Notes: generated by a model not told the origin, from the letters alone. A DNA stretch of 31,027 nucleotides from an uncultured virus (IMG/VR IMGVR_UViG_3300025033_000013) (IMGVR_UViG_3300025033_000013), one strand, 5' to 3'. Shown: positions 1,483 through 30,873, counted from the first letter of the stretch. Made by a program: numbers and translations.

Positions 1483-1673
1483 ATAAATAATTTTACCATC
1501 TCTTGTTCTAAAATTGATAACCTATGTCTTAAATGATTAAGTTTATTATCGTATTCTTCGGATGTTGTGTTAATACCAGCATTTGCTGATTGTAATTTTG
1601 ATATCTCCCTTTGGATAACATCACTTTCTCTTGTTAAGCTTTCAAATCTTTCAGCTTTTTCTGTTTGTGTCAT
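1479..1673 (-). CDS. Small coiled-coil hypothetical protein
   Basis: 64-aa ORF with heptad-like pattern; TATTTAT motif upstream. Confidence 0.65.
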   Translation of the reverse strand: MTQTEKAERFESLTRESDVIQREISKLQSANAGINTTSEEYDNKLNHLRHRLSILEQEMVKLFI

Positions 1674-1787
1674 AATATTAATTATTTTATATACCTAATA
1701 TATTCAATAAATAGTATTAATCAATAGTTTAGCTAAAATAATTGTTATTATTTTAGCTACAAAACTTATTCGACTAAATACCAGTAT

Positions 1788-2015: not shown

Positions 2016-2023
2016 TTCCAAAG

Positions 2024-2301: not shown

Positions 2302-2448
2302 TTATTTTATTCTAATTGTAATTCTATATATTTTATCTTCATAGTCATGTTCCCACCTAACAACATCAACTCGTTTATGCCATTCACTAATTTCATATTT
2401 AGAACCTTTCATGTCAACTTCCGAAACTTCAATTGTATGCGTTTTCAT
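2302..2448 (-). CDS. Small hypothetical protein (48 aa, MKTHTIEVSEVDMKG...)
   Basis: ORF read manually in the tRNA cluster spacer. Confidence 0.45.
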   Translation of the reverse strand: MKTHTIEVSEVDMKGSKYEISEWHKRVDVVRWEHDYEDKIYRITIRIK

Positions 2449-2629
2449 TGTTTTTAAACTTATTGATTAATTTATATGTTGCAAAATTTTCAGTTACGTT
2501 AAAATTATAACCAAAAAACCTAAAACGAAACCCTTTCACATATTTATATTTTCTATATACCCAAAAATAGTTAATTTTTGGAACATCTTTAAATATTGAA
2601 TACGGAGTTTTTGTTATTCTAATTTCCAT
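2429..2629 (-). CDS. Small hypothetical protein (MEIRITKTPY...)
   Basis: ORF-track entry trimmed to the ATG at 2629 because the longer start overlaps a tRNA. Confidence 0.5.
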   Translation of the reverse strand: MEIRITKTPYSIFKDVPKINYFWVYRKYKYVKGFRFRFFGYNFNVTENFATYKLINKFKNNENAYN

Positions 2630-2642
2630 AATTTTAATTTTG

Positions 2643-2717
2643 TACCCCAGTGGGAATCGAACCCACGAAACGACAGGGCTTAAACCTGTTGTGCATTCCA
2701 ACGTGCACCATGGGGGT
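2643..2717 (-). tRNA. tRNA-Leu(TAA), short variable loop; acceptor 3' strand one G short
   Basis: ACAGG-TTTAAGC-CCTGT, GTGGG-TTCGATT-CCCAC; acceptor ACCCCCA vs TGGGGT-A. Confidence 0.75.
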
Positions 2718-2719
2718 GC

Positions 2720-2881
2720 TTACATAAAAATTGATATATTATTATCGTTTTTTATTATTTTACTACATGTTAATTTTTCTATTATTTCAAAATAACCTTC
2801 TATATTTGATGACTTTGTTTTAACCAATTCATTCATAGACATTTCAACTTTTGGTGCTATTATTTTATTCCAATTTTTCAT
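2720..2881 (-). CDS. Small hypothetical protein (53 aa)
   Basis: ATG..TAA ORF exactly filling the spacer between two tRNAs. Confidence 0.35.
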   Translation of the reverse strand: MKNWNKIIAPKVEMSMNELVKTKSSNIEGYFEIIEKLTCSKIIKNDNNISIFM

Positions 2882-2882
2882 G

Positions 2883-2956
2883 TAGCCCCATTAGGAATCG
2901 AACCTAAGACCTTCTCCGTGTAAAAGAGACGCTCTAAACCACTGAGCTATGGGGCC
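2883..2956 (-). tRNA. tRNA-Val(TAC)
   Basis: Canonical cloverleaf, TCTCT-TTTACAC-GGAGA, A73. Confidence 0.95.
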
Positions 2957-2961
2957 AATTG

Positions 2962-3047
2962 TGGGGATGGTGGGAGTCGAACCCACACGCCCCTTTCGAG
3001 GCACTGATGCTTAAAACCAGCGTGTCTACCAATTCCACCACATCCCC
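2962..3047 (-). tRNA. tRNA-Leu(TAA), class II
   Basis: GGGGATG/CATCCCC, CTGGT-TTTAAGC-ATCAG, variable arm GCCTC-GAAA-GGGGC. Confidence 0.95.
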
Positions 3048-3060
3048 ATTATCATCTAAA

Positions 3061-3192
3061 TAACTGCAATAGGATTCGAACCTATACGTATATGCCTATA
3101 ACAGAGGGTTCACCCTTCAACCCAGATGGCAAGTCTGCGGCTAGTCATTAAGACGGTTAGGTCCCCGTGGCTACCAATTTCACCATACGCTC
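3061..3192 (-). ncRNA. 132-nt tRNA-like RNA with expanded multi-hairpin centre
   Basis: Leu-like D arm GTG-AAATTGGTAGC-CAC and T arm ATAGG-TTCGAAT-CCTAT, but no canonical anticodon loop and an imperfect acceptor. Confidence 0.55.
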
Positions 3193-3252
3193 ATTTAGAT
3201 ATTCAGACCATCATTTTATGTTGCAACATAACAGATGGCCTCACAATTGTTG

Positions 3253-3338
3253 TGCGGCCAGAGGGATTCGAACCCCCGTTATACTATTCGCCCCCACCTT
3301 GTAAGGGTGGTGCTCTTGACCTACTGAACTATGGCCGC
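3253..3338 (-). tRNA. tRNA-Val(TAC) with 16-nt variable region
   Basis: GCGGCCA/TGGCCGC, CCACC-CTTACAA-GGTGG, T arm intact. Confidence 0.85.
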
Positions 3339-3350
3339 ATTTTTATTTTG

Positions 3351-3435
3351 AGCACTAGGTTGGATTCGAACCAACGTTGAGATTTCTCTGGCGGTTTTGC
3401 AGACCACCCCCTTCGACCACTCGGAGCACTAGTGC
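3351..3435 (-). tRNA. tRNA-Cys(GCA) with long variable arm
   Basis: GCACTAG/CTAGTGC, GTGGT-CTGCAAA-ACCGC, U73 Cys discriminator. Confidence 0.9.
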
Positions 3436-5709: not shown

Positions 5710-5778
5710 CCAAGGTTAGCCTTTGTCGCTTACATCCCATCCACGCAAAAGCGATGGATGGGTTTTACGCTCCATTTT
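5710..5778 (-). mobile_element. Left-end remnant of the TnpB IS element
   Basis: TTTAT|AAAATGGAGCGTAAAACCCATCCATCGC..GCGTGGATGGGATGTAAGCGACAAAGG, near-identical to 22920-22977. Confidence 0.85.
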
Positions 5779-5954
5779 ATAAAACGCCTATCATCTGTAT
5801 TAAATTGGAGTGTCATATAACCATTACCATCCTTATCCTTATGTTGGTCATAATTACATCTATCTTGAATGCCTTCTATAATAACATTTAACATTCTTAA
5901 TCTTTCCTCTAGGTCTAATTTTTCGTCTAAATACTCTTTTAAATGCTTATCCAT
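5730..5954 (-). pseudogene. Hypothetical ORF truncated by the IS left end
   Basis: Last ~16 codons (KWSVKPIHRFCVDGM) derive from the IS end. Confidence 0.55.
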
Positions 5955-8782: not shown

Positions 8783-10072
8783 TTAGACTATCTCAATTAT
8801 ATATTTAATAGTGCACTGTTTTGGGTTATAAATAATGAATTCATCATTTCTTAAATCCGCTCCACCATGTGCATAAACTGAATCATAACCTTCATCATCC
8901 ATTACTTTTTGAGATAATGAGTAACAACTAGAATCATGTTTATAAATATCTTTTTGTTTTCCATGATAAACATCATATAACAATAAATAACCCTTATTAG
9001 AACTACCATTTACCCAATAAGAACCTCTTACTGAAGTATAACCTAATGATTTTTGAGCCTTATTAGCATAATATATTCCATCACCAAACATTGACCCCGT
9101 ATGAACTGCACCTGAAGGTCTAATTAATAATCCTGATTGGATTATATTAAAAATATTTTCATTTCTAGACCCATGCCAGAATAATTTTCTGTCTTTAAAT
9201 CTAGCATTACCGTAATGTTTATCGAATACAGCTTGTGTTTTCTTATTAACACATTTATAAACCTTTTTAAGTCTATCTTTAGTTGGTCCAACCAATCTAT
9301 CTATCAATTCTAATTGTTTAGGGTCAGTTTCAACAGACACCTCTAACCCCATTTGTTCTAATAAGGTAATTTCCCCATCACCATCTAAATCATCATCAAT
9401 GGTTGAACCCTTTTGTTGACTAATAAGTTTTACCTGACCAGCCATTGTATCTAATGTATCTTGTTCGTTAGCTAAGAAGTTTTTTATCTTATCTAAATCA
9501 TCTTTATCATCCGCAGCATCAATCAAATAATCACGAACATCTTTCATTTTTCTTGGAATGATGGTGTACAGTCTTATTAATAAGTCGTTGATTTCTTTAA
9601 CATTAACACCAACTTTAGCCAATCCTGAAGCTTTTGTTAAAACTTCTTGAGCGGCATCAATTTGTGCTTGAGTTACAGCATCTTGTGTAACCTTATAGTT
9701 TCTTTGGATTGATTTATTTGCATAAGCCATTAAATCATCAAATAATTGTTTTACTTGATTATCTTTAATATCAGCTGTTTTTGATGATGTACTATTTGAA
9801 GAGGTTGTTGTGGTTTCAGCAATAAGGTCTGTAACATCTTGATAACCCTTTCTAGGGTTTGTTTTACTTTGAAGAACTTTATTCCATTCGTGTGACCGCT
9901 TGTAGACAGTCACTAAATCTTTACCAACTCGACCATAATCACATTTGATTCTACCATCAGGTTGTTCTTCCATTATATACACCTTATTACTTTGAGATGT
10001 TAACCCATTATCAACTGATACATGGACTAATTTTGCATACCTTAAACCATTTTCTTTAGTAATCATTTTCAA
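8783..10072 (-). CDS. PARP1-like ADP-ribosyltransferase (WGR-like + regulatory + catalytic domains)
   Basis: YGRVG (WGR-like), LYTIIP helical regulatory domain, LFWHGSR..GSMFGDGIYYA..KSLGY..NDEFIIY (H-Y-E triad); start may be ATG at 10066. Confidence 0.9.
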   Translation of the reverse strand: MKMITKENGLRYAKLVHVSVDNGLTSQSNKVYIMEEQPDGRIKCDYGRVGKDLVTVYKRSHEWNKVLQSKTNPRKGYQDVTDLIAETTTTSSNSTSSKTADIKDNQVKQLFDDLMAYANKSIQRNYKVTQDAVTQAQIDAAQEVLTKASGLAKVGVNVKEINDLLIRLYTIIPRKMKDVRDYLIDAADDKDDLDKIKNFLANEQDTLDTMAGQVKLISQQKGSTIDDDLDGDGEITLLEQMGLEVSVETDPKQLELIDRLVGPTKDRLKKVYKCVNKKTQAVFDKHYGNARFKDRKLFWHGSRNENIFNIIQSGLLIRPSGAVHTGSMFGDGIYYANKAQKSLGYTSVRGSYWVNGSSNKGYLLLYDVYHGKQKDIYKHDSSCYSLSQKVMDDEGYDSVYAHGGADLRNDEFIIYNPKQCTIKYIIEIV

Positions 10073-13937: not shown

Positions 13938-14121
13938 ATAATGTTGGGTTTTTATCCATCCACGTTTTTATTAAATTTTGGAAATTAAGTTGTAATGGGA
14001 ATCCACCCATGTAAATAACACCACCAATAAGTTCAAATTCTTGACCAGCTTTAAATTCGACACCTTCCATTGGGCTTGAATCTTTTGTTAATCTAAAAAC
14101 TCCGTTTTGTATGTTTTTCAT
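13912..14121 (-). CDS. Hypothetical protein
   Basis: Likely start MKNIQNG at 14121; upstream extension overlaps a promoter-like region. Confidence 0.65.
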   Translation of the reverse strand: MKNIQNGVFRLTKDSSPMEGVEFKAGQEFELIGGVIYMGGFPLQLNFQNLIKTWMDKNPTLFENDTRDF

Positions 14122-14180
14122 AATTTTATAATCTTTGTGCAATGTAACTACAAAAAAAGGAAAAAAACAAGTTTTTAGCA

Positions 14181-14208
14181 AAAAAAAAAACCACTTTTCG
14201 GTGGTTTT
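14181..14208 (-). terminator. Intrinsic terminator after the RNA ligase 2 C-part
   Basis: AAAACCAC-CGAAAA-GTGGTTTTTTTTTT. Confidence 0.75.
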
Positions 14209-14212
14209 ATTA

Positions 14213-15172
14213 TCAAAGTTTATTATATTCCTCTAAAAAGAGTTCTCGAACCTTTGTTGAAATGTATTTGTTGACATCTTTTGATTGGAGGTTATTATCT
14301 TCTAAAACATCCTTTTCTTCGGCCATAATATCATTCACAACCCATCTAATGATATCACCCATTTTTTTAATGTCAATATCTCCGTTAGGGAAAATAATGC
14401 CCATACCTTGTTCAAATCTATTTTGAGTTACAGCGTAACCAACAAATTCATGGATAGAATTTATTTTCTCAGTATCAACTTTAGCTAAAGTCTTAACTTT
14501 AGATGCGCTATGTCGTTCACCCTTCACTTTGAAACGGTAATCATGACCATCAACCGTTGCACACCAAACCACACCCTCACCAATTCCTTCAATACCAAAA
14601 GCTTTACCTACGGGGCATAATTCTTCAACTGCAATGGTAATCTCACTTAATTCATTTTGAGCCAAATCAGGTCTATTAAAATCAATTTCGATTTCATAAG
14701 ATAAGAAATCTTCAACATTATAAATTCTATGGTCAATATCTCTTAAATAGTGAGAAGCTAAATGATATGGTTTAGTACTATCTTCAGGTACAACTTTTAC
14801 GTCAAATATGAAAAATGACTTTTCTATTTGAGATATTGCAACTCCTTTTTGGATGCCTTTACCAGCCCATTCACCGAATACAATAACAGTATCGTTTGGG
14901 TTAATCTTATGGTTTACATATCTAACATGTTCAACCAATTCAAGGAATGCTTGTTTATTATCTTCAACATACCTTGCAAACCCCATATTATCATTTTCAG
15001 GAGTTATAATATTACTTCTAGATTGTGCCCAAATACCATCATTTTCAGTATGTCCAATACCCGCATTTGAATTATGCACCAAAATGTCATTTACAAAAAA
15101 ACAATTTGTGTCTTGTATCGTAAGGTCAAATGACCTTCTTTCTTTTATTTTATTTATCTTTTTTAATTTCAT
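14213..15172 (-). CDS. Split-intein C-part (34 aa) + C-extein of Rnl2-family RNA ligase
   Basis: FDLTIQDTNCFFVNDILVHN|SNAG; QSR, FGEWAG, FFIFDV, EGVV, FKVK ligase motifs. Confidence 0.9.
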   Translation of the reverse strand: MKLKKINKIKERRSFDLTIQDTNCFFVNDILVHNSNAGIGHTENDGIWAQSRSNIITPENDNMGFARYVEDNKQAFLELVEHVRYVNHKINPNDTVIVFGEWAGKGIQKGVAISQIEKSFFIFDVKVVPEDSTKPYHLASHYLRDIDHRIYNVEDFLSYEIEIDFNRPDLAQNELSEITIAVEELCPVGKAFGIEGIGEGVVWCATVDGHDYRFKVKGERHSASKVKTLAKVDTEKINSIHEFVGYAVTQNRFEQGMGIIFPNGDIDIKKMGDIIRWVVNDIMAEEKDVLEDNNLQSKDVNKYISTKVRELFLEEYNKL

Positions 15173-15977
15173 TATTAATAAATTTATTTAATCTATTTTT
15201 AATTTTTTCCCTATTTTTATACCAATCATCTTCCCAAACAACAAAAACTTTATATCCCTTTCTTTTTAATAACCAAGTTCTTTTTCTATCCTTTTCCCAT
15301 TTATCAGAGCAAATCATTTTAATTGCTGTGTTGTAGTAATCACCATCATATTTTCTAGGATTACAATGATATAAATCCCCATTATATTCCACAACGATTT
15401 TTCTATTAACATTACATTCATCAACCTCAAGTTTATCTATTACATGGTGCTGTTTAAATCCATATTCTTTTAAAAAATCATGTAATTCATTATGACCTTT
15501 AGATGTAAAACCAATTTTAGAATTTTTAAAAATCTTTAAATAATGTTTTAATCTAAATTCTTCATCTGAATTTAATTTATCGTGTAATGCCTTATTTGCT
15601 CTTGTTACTTGTTTATTTTGCTCTTTTTTACTCATAGACTCCCACCTTTCCGTTGAAAATCTACCAGAATTGTTATGATTCAAAGATGATGCTTCACCAC
15701 CCAATTTAGCATTTTTGGTTCTATCTTTTTTTGATATTTTACTTAAAGCTTTTTTACCTACCTCTGAAAGTCTTTTAGCTTCTTTCTCTTTAACACAATT
15801 TTTACACAAATCTTTTTCATTTTTTTCAAACCTTTTATTTGTTTTATCAAACCTTTCATTATATATGTGATTACAATCATCACATTTAACCATATTAATC
15901 GGAAATTTTATCTTAGATAGGTGTTTTGAGTAACCCCACCTACCATTTACTAATTCACACCATGTTGTAATTACCAT
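15150..15977 (-). CDS. Free-standing Vsr-like homing endonuclease between the intein halves
   Basis: EVDE..IVVEYNGDLYHCNP..WEKD..GYKVFVVWE. Confidence 0.85.
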   Translation of the reverse strand: MVITTWCELVNGRWGYSKHLSKIKFPINMVKCDDCNHIYNERFDKTNKRFEKNEKDLCKNCVKEKEAKRLSEVGKKALSKISKKDRTKNAKLGGEASSLNHNNSGRFSTERWESMSKKEQNKQVTRANKALHDKLNSDEEFRLKHYLKIFKNSKIGFTSKGHNELHDFLKEYGFKQHHVIDKLEVDECNVNRKIVVEYNGDLYHCNPRKYDGDYYNTAIKMICSDKWEKDRKRTWLLKRKGYKVFVVWEDDWYKNREKIKNRLNKFINNEIKKDK

Positions 15978-16021
15978 ATTTACTTTTTAATATAAATATG
16001 TAGCGTTTCATGAAACTAACT

Positions 16022-16486
16022 TTAATTTTGGTCATTTTCTAAAAAAACATCTTCTTCAGTTAAGTTAATGGCTTCAACCCACCCTCTATTTTTTGTGTAA
16101 ATTTTATGGTCTTCAGTACATTTTATTGAAGAATTATTATCAAATACTAGCTCAACCCAATTTTTATTTGATTTAAAGTTTTCAGTATTTACAACCTTTT
16201 TATCCACAAACCTATTAAATTCAAAATCATAACTCAAAATAGAATCACCAACATTAATTTCACTAATTGGTATTTCTTCACCATTACTTAAAGTAACTAA
16301 AGAGTTTTTATCAAAACACCCATGAAGTTTCACAGTACCTTTAAATTTAATGGTTGGTGCAACTTTAGAATAGTCAAAAATTGCATCACCATTCTCATCT
16401 TTACCTATGTATGCGGCTCTATCTCTAGCTTCTTTTACTACTTGTCTATATTGCCCGATTTTCGGGAATGCACTATGTTTTTTCAT
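16022..16486 (-). CDS. N-extein of Rnl2-family RNA ligase (56 aa) + split-intein N-part (98 aa)
   Basis: TVKLHG|CFDKNSLV..CTEDHKI..GWVEA..L (Hint blocks A and B). Confidence 0.9.
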   Translation of the reverse strand: MKKHSAFPKIGQYRQVVKEARDRAAYIGKDENGDAIFDYSKVAPTIKFKGTVKLHGCFDKNSLVTLSNGEEIPISEINVGDSILSYDFEFNRFVDKKVVNTENFKSNKNWVELVFDNNSSIKCTEDHKIYTKNRGWVEAINLTEEDVFLENDQN

Positions 16487-16763
16487 TATTTAATTTATTT
16501 AAAAATTTTTCACTTTGATTTGAAATGAATTTGAAGAATCCAATGATTCCAATTATAAACCAGAACACTGGCCAAACAAAACTAAAAGATATCCAAGCTG
16601 ATTCATTTGATTCATAATCATCCATCATTACATACCCTCTATCATTATCATCGTAATGGTCTAACCCAAGTTGTTTAGCACACCTCTTCAATGTAATTAA
16701 TGATATTACATACCCAATAACGTAAACCAAAATTATTGTAATAATTATAAATAACTTTCCCAT
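16473..16763 (-). CDS. Two-TM membrane protein
   Basis: Two hydrophobic segments, SFVWP motif. Confidence 0.7.
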   Translation of the reverse strand: MGKLFIIITIILVYVIGYVISLITLKRCAKQLGLDHYDDNDRGYVMMDDYESNESAWISFSFVWPVFWFIIGIIGFFKFISNQSEKFLNKLNNEKT

Positions 16764-18181
16764 TATCCCACTTCTTTACCTAATCCTTTAGCCATTGCTT
16801 CAATCTCTTGACATGACTCTAATGAATCACAAGTATCTTTATCATCTCTCAATTCAACAACTGAAGGATGTAAAGTTGACCAATCACCATTAGAGTTTTG
16901 AGATAAACCACAACAACGTATTTCTACTATTGTCCCCATAAGTTCATCACCTCTTTCAGTAATATCTTTCATCATCTTCTCAGTCATACCAGAAGCATTG
17001 GTTCTTAATTTACCACATGATGATTCAAGGTTTATTGTTGAATAAACATTTTCATTTTTACTTCTTTTTTCACCATATTCAAACCCTATAACTCTAAGGT
17101 CAATATTCATTTCTAATTTCATTTTTATTTGGTGATTTTTCTTACCATCAAACCATCCAGCTGTTGGTGCTTTAAGGATGGTACCTTCTTCACCTCTATT
17201 TAAAATCTCTTGGAAGTGACTCATTGCTTCATCATAAGAATATACTTTCTTACGTTCAACTACTGATACTCTATCACATTCTAAAACTGGAGTCTTTTTA
17301 AATAAGAAATCCAATCTATGTCTATATTCAATATCAGATTTCTTATTAAAATAATCATCTAATGTAATTGAATCCCATACAGTATATCTGATTTTATCAA
17401 CAGCTTCTTTAAAACTACCATGCTTTTTCTCGAATGCCACTAATTTTTTAGCGGTTTCTTCATCACTTCTATCACCCATTTTACCACGACCCTCAATATC
17501 GACAATTGAAGCTATAATACCGTTACTTGTGTATCGGTCTAAATTCTCCATTGTAAGCTCACCATTTAATACACCATCAGGGAATTTTGATAATTCCTCA
17601 AATAATAATGAGTCACTTGGAATATGAGTTGTTTCACCTTGTCTAGACTCTAACTCAACTTCACCACCTTGAATGATTGCGTTAGCATACCTACCATCCA
17701 TTTTAACGTCACTATAAGCGTAACCATATTTCTTAAAAATATCTTTAGCTAATTTTTCATCATATGATTTAGCACCTTGATATGGCGTTTTCTCAATCAA
17801 ATCACCATAGACTTTATTAATGTAGGTTCTACCTAAACCATTCTTAGGGTCTTTATCAATAATTCTCTCAATGATATAAGCATCATCTGGTGATACACTT
17901 TCTAATATGAATTTTAAATGATTTATAGCCGCTTGTCCACTAATTTTTCTGTCAGAAATTTCATCAAGATTATTTAAACCCCACTCTAATGAAGCTGGGA
18001 TTGAACTATTTAATGAAATATATTCAGGTATTTGTTTAATAAAAAACTTCACTCTTTTAGATTTTATTCGATACAAAACTTCTTTAAGTAAGTCGTTGTC
18101 TTTATACTTGCGTAATACATCCATTTTGGCATTATCACCAGCTGTGTTACTTATTTCATCAAATATTGCTTTAATTGTCAT
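16763..18181 (-). CDS. ATP-dependent DNA ligase
   Basis: VKMDGRY, SRQG, LNGEL, VWD, EEGTILK, IKMK motifs and C-terminal OB fold. Confidence 0.92.
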   Translation of the reverse strand: MTIKAIFDEISNTAGDNAKMDVLRKYKDNDLLKEVLYRIKSKRVKFFIKQIPEYISLNSSIPASLEWGLNNLDEISDRKISGQAAINHLKFILESVSPDDAYIIERIIDKDPKNGLGRTYINKVYGDLIEKTPYQGAKSYDEKLAKDIFKKYGYAYSDVKMDGRYANAIIQGGEVELESRQGETTHIPSDSLLFEELSKFPDGVLNGELTMENLDRYTSNGIIASIVDIEGRGKMGDRSDEETAKKLVAFEKKHGSFKEAVDKIRYTVWDSITLDDYFNKKSDIEYRHRLDFLFKKTPVLECDRVSVVERKKVYSYDEAMSHFQEILNRGEEGTILKAPTAGWFDGKKNHQIKMKLEMNIDLRVIGFEYGEKRSKNENVYSTINLESSCGKLRTNASGMTEKMMKDITERGDELMGTIVEIRCCGLSQNSNGDWSTLHPSVVELRDDKDTCDSLESCQEIEAMAKGLGKEVG

Positions 18182-18182
18182 A

Positions 18183-18797
18183 TTATTCTTTTAAATTATT
18201 CATTAGTTTGTCAAAGATACGAAAATAATTTCTAGAATCAAAATTTTCTGGAAGTATTTTTTTAAAATCCGCATATAAATTATTGCATGCTTGAAAATCA
18301 ATAATCTTTTTATGCTCTTTTAATTGTAATCCAAATTGTAATATCCTCAAAGCATGGAACATACTCTTTATTGCATGTTCACCATCACCATTCTTTGATG
18401 CCATATTAGCATAGTGACGACTATCAGATGCCTTTCTGATAACTTGTTTAATCATTTCTTTGGTATTCCAATTGGTTACCTTAAAGGGCCATTTCTTGAA
18501 TACCACTTGAGAATCATCCAATGATAAACACTCCAATGCGATTATATCATACCTATTAATAGCGTCTAAGAATCCACCTCTTGAGTATACTGTACCTTGA
18601 ATTGAATAATCTTCATTAGAAATTGCATTATTCTTAAATGCACCATTATCTAACATAGCACCTTTCATGACTATAATAAAATCATGGTCAGAAGTTTCAG
18701 TCGCTGTACCATATATTTGAGAGCCGTACCCAAAAACCGCTAGAACTTCTCCAGTTATCTTCAATTCACTTAAAATTGTATCTAATGTTAATTTCAT
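18183..18797 (-). CDS. Pol-beta-superfamily nucleotidyltransferase (RlaP-like)
   Basis: YGSQIYGTATETSDHDF; C-terminal KSMFHALRIL. Confidence 0.8.
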   Translation of the reverse strand: MKLTLDTILSELKITGEVLAVFGYGSQIYGTATETSDHDFIIVMKGAMLDNGAFKNNAISNEDYSIQGTVYSRGGFLDAINRYDIIALECLSLDDSQVVFKKWPFKVTNWNTKEMIKQVIRKASDSRHYANMASKNGDGEHAIKSMFHALRILQFGLQLKEHKKIIDFQACNNLYADFKKILPENFDSRNYFRIFDKLMNNLKE

Positions 18798-18900
18798 AAT
18801 GCAAATATACGTAATTTATTTTAAATAAACAAACTTTATTTACCCTTTTGGTTTTTACCGACACCATTCTCGCTTCTCTATAATCTTTTTCCTATGTAAG

Positions 18901-19203
18901 TTATATTAATTCTCCTTTTTTGATTTCTTCTTGTCTTTCTAACAACTTTACTTGTTCGTAAATTTTATCTCTAACCTCTTTCTTTGAGAAGTGTTTGCTT
19001 TCGATATTAAAACCTAGAGTAAAAACTTCTTCATAAATTTCATAATCATATTCAGACCCAAATAGCCAAAATTTCTTTCTTTTTTCAATACCCTTGTATA
19101 CATAAAAAATTGTTTCATAATTTGTAAACATGTCATATTCACCACCTTGATAACTCCTTACTTTATAAAATAACACCCTTCTATATATCTCTAGTTTTTT
19201 CAT
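18901..19203 (-). CDS. Hypothetical protein
   Basis: ATG at 19203 downstream of TATATTTG. Confidence 0.65.
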   Translation of the reverse strand: MKKLEIYRRVLFYKVRSYQGGEYDMFTNYETIFYVYKGIEKRKKFWLFGSEYDYEIYEEVFTLGFNIESKHFSKKEVRDKIYEQVKLLERQEEIKKGELI

Positions 19204-19341
19204 AATACTGTGTTTAATACGCAAATATACGAATAATATTTAAGATAAACAAATAAACTGACATTTTTTCAGGTTTTTTCTAATGGTATATAATTTGTCT
19301 ACATACAAACAAATAATAACAAATAAAAATTTTTAGAACTT

Positions 19342-19776
19342 ATGAAAACTTTAGTACCAATTAAAAAAAACGGTCAGTTATCACCAAGCTTATTTGAATT
19401 TCCAAAATTAGACCCTTGGTTTGATAATCTTTTTGACAGTAGATTAATAACAACCCCTTCGGTTAATGTTATTGAAAATGAGGGAGCTTATCTTATTGAT
19501 GTGGCAACCCCAGGTTTTAACAAATCCAATTTTAATATTGAGATTAATGGTGATAAATTAGAAGTGTCAGCTGAATCATCAATGGAAAATAATCAAGATG
19601 ATTTAAATTATAAGAAAAGAGAATTTTCTTATTCATCGTTTAAAAGAAGCTTTTCTTTACCAAAAAACGTTGAGCATGATAAAATCTCAGCTGATTATGT
19701 TGATGGAATCCTTAAAATATCCATTCCTAAAAGCAATAATAAAGATTCACCCAATAGAAGAATAGAAATTGGATAA
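19342..19776 (+). CDS. Small heat-shock protein (Hsp20/alpha-crystallin)
   Basis: PSVNVIE..PGFNK..REFSYSSFKRSFSLP..ADYVDGILKISIPK. Confidence 0.95.
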   Translation: MKTLVPIKKNGQLSPSLFEFPKLDPWFDNLFDSRLITTPSVNVIENEGAYLIDVATPGFNKSNFNIEINGDKLEVSAESSMENNQDDLNYKKREFSYSSFKRSFSLPKNVEHDKISADYVDGILKISIPKSNNKDSPNRRIEIG

Positions 19777-19800
19777 AAAAGGCCCCATGAGGGCCTTTTA
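19775..19800. terminator. Bidirectional terminator
   Basis: AAAAAGGCCC-CATGA-GGGCCTTTT. Confidence 0.75.
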
Positions 19801-20760
19801 TTTTGTTAATATTTCATATAAATCTTTATTATTCATATTGATTATATATTCTCTAATCGTGTTAATTTTACCATCTTTTAACCCAAAAAACAATCCAGTG
19901 TGACGAGTATTTTTGAAGTGTTTATTAGATACTTCAAATACTTTCATCGCAAACCTCTTTTGTTCTTGTTTAGTTATGTTTTTAGGTTTATATGGTATTA
20001 ATTCTACCCAAGCATTTTCCAAATCATCAGTCAATTTTACTAACCCTTCTTTAAGTTGAATTATTTCTTCAGACCTTTCTGGGAACGTTGCAATCCATTC
20101 ATCAACTTCATTAGTTTTTAACACCTCTAATATATGGTGATTACCTAATTTACTTTTAGTATAATGCATTGCAACATAAGCTGGGTTTTTTAACTTGATT
20201 CTATTGAAATTAGCATCAACTACAACATAACCTTCTTCAGAGAATGACATACCTTCAAATGTCGCCATTAAATGACCAGCATTTGATGCATTAATGTTAA
20301 AAGATTTAACTAATGGTAACCCAATATCAGTAGATATTGTATATAAATCATTAAAACCATACTCATTTAACGTATCTAAATCTCTAACACCTAATAATGA
20401 TACTTTTGATTCTCCATGTGGGCAAACAACAATATTATACGGTGTCATTAATTCAAACATATATGTTCTACCTCTAACCATTCTATCCCAATTAAAACCA
20501 TATTTTGGTGATGTAATTGTATCCCAAAATAATTCAGAAAACTTAGTATTTGGTTTATCATTTACTTCACCTTCACCTTCGGCCATACCAGATGTGCCAG
20601 CACACCATTTTTCAGCTACCCAATCCCAATATACTTGAATCAATGAGTTATGTACCAATATCCCATTAGCAAAGAAATTATTGGTTTCTTTGGTTTGAAT
20701 ATCATACCTCTTAGAGTCACATTCTATCTCTTTAATATGTTTTACCTTAACTATTTTCAT
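19798..20760 (-). CDS. Split-intein C-part (38 aa) + C-extein of T4 Rnl1-like RNA ligase
   Basis: YDIQTKETNNFFANGILVHN|SLI; TYMFELMTPYNIVV, EEGYVV, RIKLKNPAY. Confidence 0.9.
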   Translation of the reverse strand: MKIVKVKHIKEIECDSKRYDIQTKETNNFFANGILVHNSLIQVYWDWVAEKWCAGTSGMAEGEGEVNDKPNTKFSELFWDTITSPKYGFNWDRMVRGRTYMFELMTPYNIVVCPHGESKVSLLGVRDLDTLNEYGFNDLYTISTDIGLPLVKSFNINASNAGHLMATFEGMSFSEEGYVVVDANFNRIKLKNPAYVAMHYTKSKLGNHHILEVLKTNEVDEWIATFPERSEEIIQLKEGLVKLTDDLENAWVELIPYKPKNITKQEQKRFAMKVFEVSNKHFKNTRHTGLFFGLKDGKINTIREYIINMNNKDLYEILTK

Positions 20761-20820
20761 ATTCTATTATTTATTATACTTGTTAGACTCCCCACTAACT
20801 CACAGCGGTCCTACAAATAA

Positions 20821-20883
20821 CGATGAATGGGTTTTACGCCCCCTACTGTGAACTACCCACCCACGCCAAAGGCGATGGGTTGG
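20821..20883 (-). mobile_element. Abutted right-end/left-end junction of the TnpB IS
   Basis: CCAACCCATCGCCTTTGGCGTGGGTGGGTAGTTCAC|AGTAGGGGGCGTAAAACCCATTCATCG. Confidence 0.8.
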
Positions 20884-21150
20884 CATGCCAAAAATCACCA
20901 TTAACTTCAATCAATATATTAGTATTATCAATTTTAATATCATATGTTCGATTATTTAATGGAAATTGTGGCGTGAATGATATGTTCAAATTAGTTAATA
21001 TATTCCTAACTCTAACCTCTAATTTCGATACAAAATTTTTATGTAATCTAATCATTCTTTTATTAAATTCATCATCAGATAAATTAGACCAAACCTCTTT
21101 TAATCCATTACTAATATTTATACTATTAGAAAAGTTTGATAGGTGTCAAG
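20843..21150 (-). pseudogene. Disrupted Vsr-like homing endonuclease between the Rnl1 intein halves
   Basis: SKLE..YDI..LIEVNGDFWHANP, then runs into the IS right end; N-terminus eroded. Confidence 0.75.
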
Positions 21151-21154
21151 TTTT

Positions 21155-21745
21155 TTAAGTAATTAGTAAGAATTCATCATCTTCGGTTAATTCATCAACC
21201 CTACGATAGCACTCTAAATTAGGTAACCATACTTTATGATTACCAGTTAACTTAATAATAGTACCATTTTCTAATTCAATCTCAAACCAATTATTAATAT
21301 TCTTTTTAATTGAATAATCCACTATTTCATCATATATTGGCTCATTAGTTTCTAAATCAAATGATAAAACTTTACCAGAATATTCCGTTTCACATATATC
21401 ACGAATTGTCATTTCACCACCCTCAGTTATCAATATGGTATCCCCGTGACAACACCCATCACATTTTTCTAAAATAAGTGCTGTGTTCCAATCTATTTTA
21501 GCCGCATGTGTTTCAGCTGAATTAAAGAATTTTCTGAATGCCAAAGACATAACCTTCCAAGTATCTTTCTCAAGTATAAGACCTCTACAATCTTGTACTT
21601 CAGGTATAGACATATCAGATTCTATTTGATTGTATTTGAGTAAAATCTTGTATCCATAATCCTTACAAGTTAATTTAAATGTATTAACTGCATTATCCAA
21701 GCCATACTCTTTAATGTACTTAACTATACTTAATTCATTTCCCAT
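21155..21745 (-). CDS. N-extein of Rnl1-like RNA ligase (97 aa) + split-intein N-part (99 aa)
   Basis: CRGLIL..FRKFFN..EKCDG|CCHGDT..LTGNHKV. Confidence 0.9.
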   Translation of the reverse strand: MGNELSIVKYIKEYGLDNAVNTFKLTCKDYGYKILLKYNQIESDMSIPEVQDCRGLILEKDTWKVMSLAFRKFFNSAETHAAKIDWNTALILEKCDGCCHGDTILITEGGEMTIRDICETEYSGKVLSFDLETNEPIYDEIVDYSIKKNINNWFEIELENGTIIKLTGNHKVWLPNLECYRRVDELTEDDEFLLIT

Positions 21746-22257
21746 TTTTTCTTTTTTTCATTGATTCAGAAATCTTCTTTTTAGTTTCCTCACTAACAAC
21801 TCTATTCTTTCTTTTCTTACTCTGCTTTAATTTCATTTCTCGTGCTTTCTCCACACCATAAATTTCTTCGTAAGATTTACCTTTTAATTGTGAATGTTTC
21901 CCTTTATTTGCTTTACCAATATTTTTTTTATGTTCTTCGGTAAAAACTTTTTTCTGTCCTTTATTACCTTCACTAATTTTCTGTTTATGCTCTTCAGTTA
22001 AAGTAGTGCCCTTTAATGGAGATTCTTTACCTATATTACCTTCAGCCATCATCTTAGCTGTTTTTTTAGTCCAAGGTTTTTTCATTCCTTTATGAGCATC
22101 ACTAATTTTCTGTTTATGTTCATCAGATAAAACTTTACCTGAATGAAATTTAGAAACGTTCTCTTTAATAAGTTCAATATCTGGATGATTAGATATTGTA
22201 TCACCACCATCCCCACCTTTTGCTACATTATAACCATTAGAGTTTTTAGAAATTCAT
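21735..22257 (-). pseudogene. GIY-YIG/NUMOD3 homing endonuclease lacking its catalytic N-terminus
   Basis: Frame extends upstream as NGYNVAKGGDGGDT; repeated L(S/T)EEHKQKIS; the promoter-proximal ATG (22257) is out of frame. Confidence 0.7.
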
Positions 22258-22331
22258 AATGCAAATGTACAAAAAAAAAAGTGATAACCAAATTATTATC
22301 ACTTTTTATTTATAAAACTATAGTTTTTTAG

Positions 22332-22841
22332 TTATAATTCATTTTTATTTTCGATTAAATCTACCAAAAAGTTAACCCCAAAAATAACCATAGCTATTGA
22401 TTCTGCCGCAAATAAGGAAATTATATTAATTAAATAATGTAAAACAAATCCTAATACCATTGCGCCAACTAAAAACCACCTAAAACTCTTAAATTCATCA
22501 CTATATCTAATAATATGATATGACATACCACCAAAAAATATAACAGAAGTTATCGTATGTAAGGTTGGGTAGGTTAAATGTGGTGTTAATGGAATTAACA
22601 TTAAATTCAACCCTAATATCCAAGTGAACGTTTGGTCCTTTCTAACTCCAATTGTTGTTATAAGTGTTGCAGCTACTGTTAATAAAAAAACATATATGAA
22701 GCTAATGTCACCATATGCGTAATCACTAATACTACTTCTAGGGCCATCACCTATCCATAATACAAAAGGTAATAAAATACAAGCTAACGCTGCGGATAAA
22801 TCGTATTTAAATAATCTGTTTAATAATCTTTCTAAATTCAT
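22332..22841 (-). CDS. Multi-pass membrane protein
   Basis: About 6 hydrophobic segments; SISDY, H and E motifs. Confidence 0.8.
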   Translation of the reverse strand: MNLERLLNRLFKYDLSAALACILLPFVLWIGDGPRSSISDYAYGDISFIYVFLLTVAATLITTIGVRKDQTFTWILGLNLMLIPLTPHLTYPTLHTITSVIFFGGMSYHIIRYSDEFKSFRWFLVGAMVLGFVLHYLINIISLFAAESIAMVIFGVNFLVDLIENKNEL

Positions 22842-22919
22842 ATTTTTATAATTTATTTATAAATATTTTGAATTTCTTGAATAAATCCAATTACTTTATT
22901 TTTTTTCAAATAACTTTAT

Positions 22920-24279
22920 AAAAAGGAGCGTAAAACCCATTCATCGCAAAGCGTGGATGGGATGTAAGCGACAAAGGTATGATTAACCTTGGCTTAAAAT
23001 ATATTGAACGGCTAAGTATGACAAATTTACATAAAACTATATTTTGGCATAAATTTTGATGTATAATAGGTATGAAAATGATTAATAAGACATATAAGTT
23101 TCGTCTTTTTCCAACAAATGAGCAAGAAGTGCTATTAAATCAACACTTTGGTCACTCTCGTTGGGTGTATAACCATTTTCTAAATGAACGCAAAGAACAA
23201 TACCAAGCGGATAAAAAGTCTGACAATTATTACAAACAAGCTGCCACTTTGACAAAACTTAAAAAAGAAGAAAAGACTATGTGGTTGAAAGAAGTTAATA
23301 GTCAAACTTTACAATTCGCTCTACGCTCTTTAGATACAGCTTTTTTAAACTTTTTTAGAGGTAATGCACAATTCCCAAAGTTTAAATCTCGTAAACATAA
23401 AAATACTTTTACCATACCTCAATTTGGTAGTATAGAAGGAGATAAAATTAATATACCAAAATTTAAAGAAGGTATTAAAGTTAAACTTCACAGAGAAGTC
23501 AAAGGTAAGATTGGTAAAATGATAATTACCAAAACACCAACAGGTAAATATTATGTTTCAATATTTACAGAACAACAGAATAAAGAATTACCTAAAACAA
23601 ATAAACAAGTTGGAATAGATTTAGGTTTAAAGGATTTTGTAATTACTTCTGATAATGCTAAATTCAAAAATAATAGATATACAAAAAAATATGCAAAACA
23701 ATTAAAAAAAGCACAACAACATCTTTCTCGTAAACAAAAAGGTAGTAATGGGTTTGAAAAACAAAAACTCAAAGTTGCTAAAATTCACGAGAAAATTGCA
23801 AGTTGTAGATTAGACACTTTACATAAGGTTTCACATAAACTGGTTAATCAATATGATTTAATATCAGTTGAGGACTTAAATGTAAAAGGTATGATTAAAA
23901 ACCACAAATTATCAAAACATATTGCCGATGCAAGTTGGGGTAATTTTGTTACATTACTTCAATATAAGTGTGATTGGTATGGAAAAGAACTTGTAAAAGT
24001 TAATCGTTTCTATCCTAGCTCGAAGACTTGTGGAGACTGTGGTTGGATAAATCAAAATTTAAAACTTTCTGATAGAGAATGGACTTGTAACTCGTGCGGT
24101 GTAATACACGACAGAGATGTAAATGCAAGTAGAAATATTCTCAAAGAAGGTTTAAAAATAATATCGGGTGGGATGCTCGATAACACTGATGGAGACTCAA
24201 ATAAGACTTCTATAAAGAAGCACAAGTCTGTGAAATCAGAAGCCCAACCCATCGCCTCTGGCGTGGGTGGGTAGTTCAC
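22920..24279 (+). mobile_element. IS200/IS605-family TnpB-only element
   Basis: Subterminal hairpins at both ends; begins after TTTAT and ends GTAGTTCAC; no tnpA. Confidence 0.88.
23072..24274 (+). CDS. tnpB: RNA-guided endonuclease TnpB
   Basis: HTH N-terminus, GIDLG, VEDL, SSKTC..CG..WTC..CG zinc finger, DRDVNA; RuvC D-E-D intact. Confidence 0.95.
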   Translation: MKMINKTYKFRLFPTNEQEVLLNQHFGHSRWVYNHFLNERKEQYQADKKSDNYYKQAATLTKLKKEEKTMWLKEVNSQTLQFALRSLDTAFLNFFRGNAQFPKFKSRKHKNTFTIPQFGSIEGDKINIPKFKEGIKVKLHREVKGKIGKMIITKTPTGKYYVSIFTEQQNKELPKTNKQVGIDLGLKDFVITSDNAKFKNNRYTKKYAKQLKKAQQHLSRKQKGSNGFEKQKLKVAKIHEKIASCRLDTLHKVSHKLVNQYDLISVEDLNVKGMIKNHKLSKHIADASWGNFVTLLQYKCDWYGKELVKVNRFYPSSKTCGDCGWINQNLKLSDREWTCNSCGVIHDRDVNASRNILKEGLKIISGGMLDNTDGDSNKTSIKKHKSVKSEAQPIASGVGG

Positions 24280-28745: not shown

Positions 28746-28763
28746 ATTGCTGGTTTATTGTAG

Positions 28764-28836
28764 TGACCCTAGAGGGATTCGAACCCCCGCTCTACTGGTT
28801 CGTAACCAGTGGCATTATCCGCTATGCTATAGAGCC
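28764..28836 (-). tRNA. tRNA-Arg(ACG)
   Basis: Canonical cloverleaf, ACTGG-TTACGAA-CCAGT. Confidence 0.93.
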
Positions 28837-28886
28837 ATAAATAGTTGTGATTAACATTCGGTTTAAGGCACTCGATATAACTATTG

Positions 28887-28966
28887 TGACGGCCAAGAGA
28901 TTCGAACTCTTATTTACAACTCCAATTACGTTTAATGGTTTCGAAGACCACCTCGGTTACACCGCC
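28887..28966 (-). tRNA. Rearranged tRNA-like gene, anticodon TCG (Arg)
   Basis: Acceptor and T arm present; GTGGT-CTTCGAA-ACCAT only 8 nt after the acceptor 5' strand; D-loop-like TAATTGGA follows it. Confidence 0.7.
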
Positions 28967-28976
28967 ATTTTTAAAA

Positions 28977-29014
28977 TCCTTCTCTAGTTTCGAAGACTAG
29001 GGGAATACATCGCC
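28977..29014 (-). pseudogene. 5'-half remnant of a rearranged Arg(TCG) tRNA
   Basis: GGCGATG TATT CCC CTAGT-CTTCGAA-ACTAG AGAAGG. Confidence 0.6.
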
Positions 29015-29048
29015 ATTTTTGGAAGTAAATTGTTTAATAATAAATATG

Positions 29049-29127
29049 TAACGACAGTGGGATTCGAACCCACGTTTTCAGCTCCGCTACCCTTATCGGT
29101 TTAGAAAACCAACGGGGCTACACCCGC
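29049..29127 (-). tRNA. Rearranged tRNA-like gene, anticodon TCT (Arg), chimeric acceptor
   Basis: TAGC CCCG TTGGT-TTTCTAA-ACCGA TAA GGG TAGCGGA GCTG AAAAC GTGGG-TTCGAAT-CCCAC. Confidence 0.6.
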
Positions 29128-29139
29128 ATTTATTTTATA

Positions 29140-29162
29140 AAGACCCCCTCGGCTATGCCGCC
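29140..29162 (-). pseudogene. 5' fragment of a rearranged tRNA ending at the anticodon loop
   Basis: GGCGGCA TAGC CGAG GGGGT CTT; GGCGGCA pairs with TGTCGTT at 29056-29050. Confidence 0.55.
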
Positions 29163-29200
29163 ATTTACCACAATTAAGGTATTGTGGTCAACCATACGTT

Positions 29201-29539
29201 TTAATATTCTTTATATTCAGCTAACCCTTCAGTTACTAGCAAATCATTAATGTTTATAGTTTCCACATCAGTACTTAAAAATATCTCACCCAAATACCTA
29301 CCATATTTACCTTGTTTATCTTTAATTGTGTGAATCGCCACATCCTTATCTAGAATTAATTCTCTAAGCCTATCTCTAGTTATTAAACCAAGTTCACGCT
29401 CTGCGCCACGTATTTCTGGTGTGTTGATTCTAAGTAATCTAATTTTTTCAGTTATCTTTACATTAAACCCTAAGTCTATTTCAGCTGTAACTGTATCACC
29501 ATCATAAACTGATGTTATTTTTGCTTTATATTCGTACAT
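29201..29539 (-). CDS. Thermonuclease (SNase-like)
   Basis: VYDGDT..IRLLRINTPE..GKYGRYLG..LVTEGLA. Confidence 0.9.
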   Translation of the reverse strand: MYEYKAKITSVYDGDTVTAEIDLGFNVKITEKIRLLRINTPEIRGAERELGLITRDRLRELILDKDVAIHTIKDKQGKYGRYLGEIFLSTDVETININDLLVTEGLAEYKEY

Positions 29540-29599
29540 ATTTCATTAATTTGTTTTAAGTAATTCCATTGGAATCGTTTTTATTAGTTTTGCATTATA

Positions 29600-29902
29600 T
29601 TAATTAAATATCCAATGGTTATTGTAAAATTTATAATCTTTTGACTCATAAACCCTAAGATAATACCCATGTTCTTCTAATCTAACGATATCCTCTTTTG
29701 GAAACCATTCAAATAAATTTTCTAATGTATCAGTACACGATAAATAACCAATAATGTTTTCATCAAATGGCATCGGTAATAGATTATTTCTACAAAAATT
29801 AAATTCTTTATGAATAAGACCTGTGAACTCACCATCTATATTATACCATAACCCCTGATTAGTGGTAATATTACCCACCCTATAGAAAATTTTTTTCTTC
29901 AT
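29600..29902 (-). CDS. Hypothetical phage protein (stop may be premature)
   Basis: FYRV..QGLWY..; frame stays open 17 codons past the TAA. Confidence 0.65.
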   Translation of the reverse strand: MKKKIFYRVGNITTNQGLWYNIDGEFTGLIHKEFNFCRNNLLPMPFDENIIGYLSCTDTLENLFEWFPKEDIVRLEEHGYYLRVYESKDYKFYNNHWIFN

Positions 29903-29922
29903 AAAAACTTTGTTAATATTAG

Positions 29923-29954
29923 TGACTCCATCAGGCTTCGAACCTGAATCTAGA
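29923..29954 (-). pseudogene. tRNA 3'-half remnant
   Basis: TCAGG-TTCGAAG-CCTGA TGGAGTC A with no matching 5' half. Confidence 0.6.
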
Positions 29955-29958
29955 GTTG

Positions 29959-30030
29959 TGAACTCGCCCAGAGTCGAACTGAGGTCTTAGCTTTAGGAAA
30001 GCCAGATTTTTCCAATTAAACTACAAGTCC
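29959..30030 (-). tRNA. tRNA-Arg(CCT)
   Basis: GGACTTG/CGAGTTC, TGGCT-TTCCTAA-AGCTA, T arm intact. Confidence 0.85.
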
Positions 30031-30656: not shown

Positions 30657-30863
30657 GTGAACTACCCACCCACGGCAGAGCCGATGGGTTGGGTTTCATT
30701 GACTCGACCAATGTCAACACCTCCACTTGTTTTTGTTTATACTCCGATTGCATACCACAACCAGAGTTAATAAAAATATACGACTTTATTTTTAAAAGTC
30801 AAATCTTTTTGTCGCTTACATCCCATTCACGCTTTGCGATGAATGGGTTTTACACTCCGTTTT
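30657..30863 (-). mobile_element. 207-bp internally deleted TnpB element retaining both ends
   Basis: Left end after TTTAT; right end ..GGGTGGGTAGTTCAC; retains a tnpB 3'-like segment (SGCGMQSEYKQKQVE). Confidence 0.85.
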
Positions 30864-30873
30864 ATAAAAAAAA

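Follow-up and report, generated by a model that had tools for sequence, protein, structure and literature searches.

We describe two RNA ligase genes, each interrupted by a split intein directly after catalytic motif I, the equivalent position in both, in a stretch of 31,027 nucleotides from an uncultured virus (IMG/VR IMGVR_UViG_3300025033_000013), referred to here as the window. The window, which is the reverse complement of the opening 31 kb of an IMG/VR virus record of 93,027 bases, is AT-rich (23-36% G+C), and almost all of its genes lie on the minus strand. The two split genes, an Rnl2-like gene (gene A, 14213-16486) and an Rnl1-like gene (gene B, 19798-21745), are both on the minus strand and 3.3 kb apart. 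We call their inteins A and B, and the N- and C-terminal intein parts IntN and IntC. The features of the two loci are as follows.

16022..16486, minus: open reading frame (ORF) of the gene A N-part, comprising N-extein and IntN
16319..16486, minus: gene A N-extein, 56 amino acids (aa), ending with motif I, ...TVKLHG
16022..16318, minus: IntN of intein A, 98 aa plus stop, with Cys1 and block B CTEDH
15150..15977, minus: intact free-standing Vsr/DUF559-like homing endonuclease gene (HEG A), 275 aa
14213..15172, minus: ORF of the gene A C-part, comprising IntC and C-extein
15071..15172, minus: IntC of intein A, 34 aa, ending ...ILVHN
14213..15070, minus: gene A C-extein, 285 aa plus stop, opening with Ser+1 (SNAGIGH...)
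21155..21745, minus: ORF of the gene B N-part, comprising N-extein and IntN
21455..21745, minus: gene B N-extein, 97 aa, ending with motif I, ...LEKCDG
21155..21454, minus: IntN of intein B, 99 aa plus stop, starting CCHGDT, with block B LTGNH
20876..21139, minus: remnant of a homing endonuclease gene (HEG B), about 86 residues left, both ends gone
20820..20883, minus: end piece of an IS605/TnpB insertion sequence (IS), 64 nt, repeat families D9, D14 and I3
19798..20760, minus: ORF of the gene B C-part, comprising IntC and C-extein
20647..20760, minus: IntC of intein B, 38 aa, ending ...ILVHN
19798..20646, minus: gene B C-extein, 282 aa plus stop, opening with Ser+1 (SLIQVYW...)
16763..18181, minus: ATP-dependent DNA ligase (PF01068 and PF04675) between the split genes, motif I KMDG uninterrupted

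Both inteins are inserted between the Gly of motif I and the residue that follows it, giving KLHG↓C...HN↓S in gene A and KCDG↓C...HN↓S in gene B, where arrows mark the junctions. The residues of a class 1 intein are present in each, as C...CTEDH...VHN↓S in A and C...LTGNH...VHN↓S in B. Both loci have the layout of a fractured gene, with adjacent ORFs on the same strand, the first ending in an IntN and the second starting with an IntC, and with an endonuclease between the halves that is intact at locus A and reduced to an 86-residue remnant at locus B. All four ORFs are open and each has its own ATG. On translation, the coordinates and residues of the initial annotation all held. Its view that split inteins interrupt both genes at the same place in motif I is borne out by intein models, alignments to the T4 ligases and empty alleles, and both C-exteins do start with Ser, as it had stated.

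In gene A, the Cys1 codon occupies 16318-16316 and IntN begins CFDKNS; the N-part matches the Pfam models Hint (E 4.3e-10) and Intein_splicing (E 2.9e-7). IntC A terminates in ...NCFFVNDILVHN, followed directly by the Ser+1 codon at 15070-15068, and matches Intein_splicing over positions 122-155 (E 7.4e-4). A terminator-like hairpin (14208-14187) comes after the C-extein. As to the host, the C-extein passes the cut-off of PF09414 RNA_ligase (35.7 bits against 27, positions 10-171) and aligns to T4 Rnl2 (2hvq, E 7e-5), and the C-part spans 39-339 of the 341 positions of PHROG 548, an RNA ligase profile (E 5.6e-57). On the NCBIfam equivalog model TIGR02307 gene A falls far under the cut-off (42.4 against 197). 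By these profile scores gene A is an Rnl2-type RNA ligase but not an orthologue of T4 Rnl2, and the name Rnl2-like suits it best.

In gene B, a gap of 394 nt separates the two ORFs. The N-part matches Intein_splicing with E 1.7e-8. IntC B terminates in ...NNFFANGILVHN, with the Ser+1 codon next (20646-20644), and matches the same model over positions 121-155 (E 3.3e-6); the C-part also exceeds the cut-off of NCBIfam intein_Cterm (30.1 bits against 15.6), and IntC B is identical to five relatives at 29-35 of 38 positions. On PHROG 562, the profile of the T4 RnlA type, the N-part covers positions 35-108 and the C-part 107-363, so that the two parts abut. The C-extein matches T4 Rnl1 (2c5u, E 1.6e-7), with ..FELMTPYN.. 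and ..EGYVVV..IKLKNP.. corresponding to T4 motifs. The N-extein matches PF09511 over positions 2-55 below the cut-off (E 3e-5; 24.4 against 28.3), and on TIGR02308, the RnlA equivalog, the gene scores far under it (37.7 against 242). Gene B looks like a distant member of the T4 RnlA family and is best called Rnl1-like.

HMMER places Ser+1 of gene A opposite the Thr of KIHG↓TN in T4 Rnl2 (2hvq), and ..EKCDG↓C of gene B opposite ..TKEDG↓S of T4 Rnl1 (2c5u). Motif I and the downstream nucleotidyltransferase motifs align with both T4 enzymes (RnlA, 2c5u and 5tt6; Rnl2, 2hvq and 1s68). Unlike the genes described here, the T4 ligase genes are uninterrupted, and the window ligases are distant relatives of the T4 enzymes. 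Intein-free alleles of both genes are found in related viral contigs: ...GTVKLHG↓TNAG... for gene A in L011-L017 and L058, and K.DG↓(T/S)(M/L)IQ for gene B in L015 and L036-L046. The residue after the insertion site is Ser in occupied alleles and Thr or Ser in empty ones. With Pfam hits (intein and Hint models) on each of the four pieces at the junctions, exteins that abut on ligase profiles, alignments to the T4 ligases and empty alleles, the split-intein anatomy at both loci is not due to chance.

All four combinations of split and whole ligase genes occur among the related contigs. Both genes are whole in L015, L036 and L059, Rnl1 alone is split in L029 and Rnl2 alone in L043 and L044; among these contigs, both are split solely in near-identical copies of the same phage. 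That phage is present, at 99.5-100% identity over the region, in 11 loci of other viral contigs (L005-L010 and L019-L023) and in 24 listed DNA runs, mostly labelled as aquifer metagenome. A megablast search of 14000-22000 against named phage records gave zero matches. Reads and contigs of four DNA runs showed no well-supported joint that removes an intein or an endonuclease gene; two candidate skips had sides of 21-22 letters, and 30 were required. A contig of 314,960 bases is also on record with N-part proteins identical to those of the two split genes; the virus record, which is rated complete, has 93,027 bases, and the phage may be larger than that record.

The endonuclease at locus A passes the cut-off of Pfam DUF559 (24.3 bits against 20.6), matches REase_MTES_1575 (E 8.3e-7), carries the motifs ..YNGDLYHCNP.. 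and ..VVWEDDW.., and shares 23 nt at its 3' end with the start of IntC A. It is 85% identical to the endonuclease in the same place in L057, a 75%-identical relative. At locus B, the remnant corresponds to residues 229-314 of the endonuclease of L032 (380 aa), with 85% identity across these 86 aa, and its match to the Vsr model is weak (E 0.0027; 18 bits against a cut-off of 27). The motifs ..NGDLYH.. (HEG A) and ..NGDFWH.. are present in the endonuclease sequences. The homology of the remnant stops at ..GDFWHANP, where the IS605/TnpB piece begins, and metagenome contigs break at the repeat 20847-20883. In relatives, the gene B endonuclease is intact (L029, L031, L032 and L034), frameshifted (L035) or absent, with a gap of about 100 nt in its place (L030 and L033). 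The claim that the Rnl1 endonuclease gene is dead while the split persists is thus upheld, with 86 residues left of a 380 aa protein, and a dead endonuclease with a retained split is a common state in the gene B family.

The debris at 20820-20883 (minus), within the dead Rnl1 endonuclease gene, is itself composite, a right-end-like piece of the IS605/TnpB element running into a left-end-like piece, right then left. The tnpB of the element lies at 23072-24274, a copy without tnpB but with both IS605 ends at 30657-30868, and related pieces at 22915-22975, 24239-24279, 5751-5784 and 1963-1996.

An alternative is that one or both split genes are decaying pseudogenes, with an intein that has ceased to splice and a phage that depends on its other ligases; the Rnl1 locus, with its dead endonuclease, would be the likeliest case. 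The truncation of the Rnl1 endonuclease at both ends, the IS-end piece in the gap, the possible redundancy among three ligases in the phage, and the lack of an RNA run among those listed for the stretch would all fit. Against this, the four ORFs are open, each with its own ATG, and the catalytic residues of the inteins and motif I of the ligases are intact and invariant in their families: K53, H55, G56, C57 (Cys1), T124 and H127 across an alignment of 34 A-type N-parts (lowest identity 48%), and K94, D96, G97, C98 (Cys1), T167 and H170 across one of 36 B-type N-parts (lowest identity 38%). Split alleles without an endonuclease are common and conserved (L030 and L033), and other viral contigs with the same phage match the locus at 99.5-100% identity. 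The ratio of nonsynonymous to synonymous substitution rates (dN/dS) of the intein B halves against six relatives is 0.04-0.13, in a set of estimates where dS was close to saturation in several comparisons and not computable in four; these halves are thus under strong purifying selection. We therefore regard decay as very unlikely. For intein A against L057, dN/dS is 0.30 for IntN, and IntC gave no estimate, its dS not being computable. Both inteins look functional, and splicing activity is likely, given the conservation of residues and the dN/dS values. The intein B halves have dN values of 0.04-0.20, well under the 0.20-0.50 of the flanking exteins, and so intein B seems to have been shared more recently than its host gene, as expected of a homing element.

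Intein B opens with two cysteines (window 21449-21454), like most of its Rnl1-hosted relatives (CCHEDT), and two further Cys positions, C118 and C179, are almost invariant in its family; a redox effect of these cysteines on splicing is conceivable.

How closely the two inteins are related bears on whether they could react with each other. IntN A and IntN B are identical at 28 of 96 positions (29%), with indels, and score 40.4 bits by BLASTP; the IntCs are identical at 17 of 34. The initial annotation had taken the similarity of the IntCs as a hint of cross-reactivity. That hint loses its force, since the NxF(F/Y)ANxILVHN tail also ends the seven ribonucleotide reductase (RNR) IntCs that we compared and is found in NrdJ-1. 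Against those seven, IntC A is identical at 11-15 of 32-33 positions and IntC B at 13-17 of 33-34. On these comparisons the shared tail (NxFFANxILVHN) is the class-wide block F/G tail, and it is no sign of a special link between A and B.

When viral contigs were scanned with the A N-part, split inteins resembling IntN A (33-45% identity) came to light; their hosts are ribonucleotide reductases (SNL↓C and SNP↓C) and terminases. The highest local BLASTP scores of IntN A are 61.6 bits (45% identity) for RNR split inteins and 61.2 bits for terminase split inteins. Against 149 IntNs of the clade to which intein B belongs (clade B, described below), its best score is 45.1 bits, with 134 of the 149 hit at a median of 30.0 bits. 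The median scores of IntN B are 90.5 bits within its own clade, 35.4 against A-type IntNs and 26.9 against the RNR set. No A-type sequence is among the 150 best relatives of IntN B, and a word-based search with IntN A alone returned only Rnl2-type N-parts (19 of 19 hits, 133-158 aa). An intein phylogeny, which had been proposed as a check, likewise speaks against a close link: the A-type inteins form one clade of their own, with a Shimodaira-Hasegawa (SH)-like support of 99 in one tree and an SH approximate likelihood ratio test (SH-aLRT) value of 100 in another. The scores suggest that A and B are not sisters, and, as part of the explanation that we favour, they are probably separate lineages that reached the equivalent site separately.

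These comparisons also bear on the idea that A and B are copies of one element, which moved between the two ligase genes by ectopic homing through motif I and later diverged. The identical insertion position in two members of one superfamily, the Vsr-like endonucleases at both loci and the significant BLASTP match between the IntNs speak for it, as does clade B itself, whose presence at motif I of several ligase families shows that switches of host protein at the site do happen. The scores of IntN A, which place RNR and terminase inteins above any clade B IntN, point the other way, together with the lack of A-type sequences among the best relatives of IntN B. The two endonucleases are only 27-37% identical, the 42-nt DNA target sites of the two inteins match at 15 of 42 positions, and in relatives each element comes and goes independently of the other. 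A common origin by ectopic homing is highly improbable.

The explanation that we consider likely is one of two independent fractured genes with cognate-only splicing. The anatomy, the insertion sites, the empty alleles, the two lineages and the conservation are observed; activity, co-expression and orthogonality we infer. A class 1 split intein with a free-standing Vsr-like endonuclease would have invaded the DNA of motif I (KxxG) two independent times. Each ligase would then be made as two polypeptides, and each IntN/IntC pair would be expected to associate and to splice by an N-S acyl shift at Cys1, transesterification to Ser+1 and Asn cyclisation. The expected products are intact ligases, Rnl2-like with ...KLHG-SNAG... 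and Rnl1-like with ...KCDG-SLIQ.... The Rnl1 element would have lost its endonuclease, apparently along with the IS-end insertion, and would persist as a fixed split intein.

The initial annotation had argued that the halves must be either orthogonal or a source of Rnl1/Rnl2 chimeras, a dichotomy that is logically sound. We expect cognate-only splicing because the inteins come from different lineages, and, if both are active, orthogonality is very probable by analogy with inteins that have been tested together. In the available part of Pinto et al. (2020), gp41-1, gp41-8, NrdJ-1 and IMPDH-1 are used together in one pot, and a 24 x 24 matrix shows orthogonality between same-class inteins that share this C-terminal tail. 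According to Supplementary Data 1 of that paper, NrdJ-1 C with IMPDH-1 N gave 100-346 arbitrary units (a.u.) against 32,000-40,000 for the cognate pair, and for the converse mixture, IMPDH-1 C and NrdJ-1 N, the signal was -17 to 69 a.u. where the cognate pair reached about 21,000-24,000, so that the non-cognate signals are about 1% of the cognate ones or less (Pinto et al., 2020). Both inteins of that pair have an acidic N-part and a basic C-part, as stated in the accessible text of Dassa et al. (2009; PMC2677866).

Several observations weigh against our reading. The two inteins have the same charge polarity (IntN -9 and -14, IntC +3 and +2), with no evident basis for discrimination, and their contact regions are alike, the IntN tails sharing LTE(E/D)D.FL and the IntC heads MK(L/I).K(I/V).(K/H)IKE. 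IntC A is slightly nearer to B-type IntCs (15-19 of 33-34 positions, in six including IntC B) than to RNR IntCs. The RNR and terminase comparison set was chosen as the best matches to intein A, which biases it towards kin of A. Finally, none of the runs listed with 14213-21745 is an RNA run, and no splicing, expression or junction peptide was seen.

The like polarity, the similar tails and heads and the IntC identity of 17 in 34, together with the Gly at -1 and the Ser at +1 of both inteins, would favour cross-reaction in the infected cell, with chimeras Rnl1N-Rnl2C and Rnl2N-Rnl1C (KCDG-SN and KLHG-SL) or dead-end mixed complexes as the outcome. IntNs that are just 29% identical with indels, separate lineages and the orthogonality of same-class, same-tail inteins in the 24 x 24 matrix (about 1% or less for NrdJ-1/IMPDH-1) argue against it, and selection in a genome that keeps both inteins should purge it. 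We consider it quite unlikely. The Npu and Ssp DnaE split inteins of cyanobacteria are the textbook cross-reacting pair; they react with each other because they are alleles of a single intein and occupy the same site of orthologous genes. As in the present case, these are naturally split class 1 inteins whose halves meet in trans; here, the IntNs are 29% identical and the host genes are different.

Intein B is a member of a very large clade of naturally split inteins (clade B), nearly all of them inserted at motif I of ligases. We searched 1.84 billion representatives with the 99 aa of IntN B alone, without extein, and obtained 814 clusters (at 50% identity) with E<=1e-3, of which 321 had E<=1e-10. 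In 144 of the best 150 relatives, the match ends no more than 12 residues from the C-terminus, as in a split intein. The junctions before Cys1 in these 150 are distributed as follows.

K..G directly before Cys1: 118 (86 KxDG, 26 KxHG and 6 KxEG)
K..G one residue later: 6
K..G two residues later: 8
Second site, (K/R)TDxxx↓C: 14
Other: 3; N-truncated: 1

A hand count of Pfam modules in the same 150 gave 60 with the PHA02142 OB-fold, 19 with an Rnl1 N-terminus, 2 with an AAA_33 kinase, 1 with an NAD-ligase adenylation domain and 1 with DNA_ligase_A_N, the rest having intein domains only or nothing. The PHA02142 type corresponds to NCBIfam RNA_lig_DRB0094, on which the N-parts end at profile positions 166-176, at or near the start of the intein. 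The host families seen are the T4 RnlA type, the DraRnl/DRB0094 type, short Rnl2-like N-parts, Pnk-ligase fusions and ATP-dependent DNA ligases. A word-based search gave the same picture: the pattern of K..G, Cys1 and TxxH, with the intein running to the end of the protein, is present in 95 of 120 listed relatives of the B N-part and in 30 of 34 relatives of the A N-part. One relative, P0194, is a contiguous mini-intein. By the identity of its hosts, clade B spans several ligase families, and IntN B is 59% identical both to an Rnl1-hosted relative (P0155) and to a DRB0094-hosted one (P0156).

The second site, (K/R)TDxxx↓C, sits about 20 residues ahead of motif I in DRB0094-type RNA ligases (P0197, P0214, P0215, P0227, P0229, P0232, P0233, P0244, P0251, P0256, P0258, P0281, P0286 and P0288), and the intein of P0282 is inserted after RGDG of an NAD-dependent DNA ligase.

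The N-extein of P0113, in which a clade B intein follows KLDG, aligns with the window's DNA ligase over residues 3-163 of the latter, as far as KMDG. This third ligase of the window is of a type that is invaded elsewhere and empty in the window.

In a tree of clade B, the Rnl1- and DRB0094-hosted inteins look mixed, with 12 label changes, and 6 of 68 branches are well supported; a larger intein tree was also poorly resolved, with 10 of 185 branches starred. The trees do not establish repeated host switching within clade B: the approximately unbiased (AU) test fails to reject one clade that unites all 20 Rnl1-hosted inteins (p 0.87), and the tree under this constraint had a log-likelihood 49.5 units above that of a quick free search.

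A wider reading is that motif I (KxxG) of covalent nucleotidyltransferases is a super-hotspot for split inteins, owned by clade B, which would have moved between non-orthologous ligase families by way of the shared nucleotide-binding motif; the phage would then be an end state, in which two of its three ligases are occupied at that site by different lineages that have been selected to ignore each other in one cytoplasm. We put this forward tentatively, as a proposal that falls a little short of an even chance. If true, it would provide a ready-made natural orthogonal pair with a shared Gly(-1)/Ser(+1).

The available part of Dassa et al. (2009; PMC2677866) describes enzyme genes of phages that a split intein interrupts, a free-standing GIY-YIG or Vsr-like endonuclease gene lying between the halves; it also describes an endonuclease-less variant locus, gp41-7, and names DNA ligase as one of eight host types. 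The genes described here share with these fractured genes the two adjacent ORFs on one strand, the IntN end and IntC start, and, at locus A, the Vsr-like endonuclease gene between them; the remnant locus of gene B is comparable to gp41-7. They differ in their hosts, ATP-dependent Rnl1- and Rnl2-type RNA ligases, which are absent from the host lists in the accessible text of that paper, and in that two fractured genes lie 3.3 kb apart with two intein lineages at an equivalent catalytic motif. The layout has been known since 2009; the window contributes the double occupancy of an equivalent site by two lineages in one genome.

The closest solved intein by sequence is NrdJ-1 (8ubs/9omb), with E 1.1e-6 for the A N-part (8ubs) and 2.7e-3 for the B N-part. 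NrdJ-1 and intein A share block B, ...CT.DH.(I/V)YTKNRG(Y/W)V.A, and its IntC tail, ...NFFANDILVH, is common to inteins A and B. The acidic IntN and basic IntC agree with the polarity that Dassa et al. (2009) give for NrdJ-1 in the part of the paper available. Its host is a ribonucleotide reductase, unlike the ligases here, and the alignments obtained are partial. For gp41-1 (6qaz) there is a weak match to IntC A, with E 0.34.

An intein in an Rnl2-type ligase may already be on record if the entry IPR021122 is, as we presume, the REL/Rnl2-type ligase domain. In the accessible part of a preprint on actinobacteriophage inteins (10.1101/2025.01.02.630785), an RNA-ligase intein host in actinophages is placed under that entry, and one intein lineage is reported at similar nucleotide-binding motifs of unrelated proteins. 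Clade B resembles the 'extein switching' of that preprint, at motif I of ligases. Unlike the split inteins described here, those of the survey are, in its available part, mostly contiguous and from cultured actinophages. In the open literature (subscription journals and preprint supplements being outside the scope of the search), we found no paper on naturally split inteins in Rnl1- or Rnl2-type ligases and no account of a large split-intein family that occupies motif I of ligases, and split intein, phage, RNA ligase and homing endonuclease were combined only in this preprint.

Split inteins are tools for protein ligation, and pairs without cross-talk are in demand; inteins A and B are a good candidate pair, being natural, from one cytoplasm and with the same Gly↓Ser junction. 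The gene B family shows every stage of the homing cycle, with the endonuclease intact, frameshifted, truncated or absent. The locus also points to motif I of ligases as a preferred landing site of a large split-intein family, and in many uncultured phages the ligases for RNA repair will go unnoticed or be wrongly annotated as fragments.

Further features lie near the split genes. A 116 aa ORF of NUMOD3 repeats (window 21735-22085) overlaps the start of the Rnl1 N-part and adjoins a 123-nt direct repeat (21880-22131). A similar ORF occupies the same place in L033, and the NUMOD3-repeat ORF is probably a DNA-binding remnant of another free-standing endonuclease. A strain polymorphism lies outside the split genes: one viral contig (L022/L009), like contigs from three of the four DNA runs examined, has 538 different letters in place of the 149 nt at 18722-18872. 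A promoter scan gave no signal, with 56 sites against 51.1 expected.

Elsewhere in the window, a 429 aa protein (8783-10072) carries a PARP catalytic domain (E 4.8e-24). In relatives, a conserved three-gene block comes after the Rnl2-like ligase, and the gene for this protein is located downstream of that block. There are 8-9 tRNA genes in two clusters (300-3435 and 28763-30030), and one 114-nt Rfam match (29049-29162) may contain an insertion.

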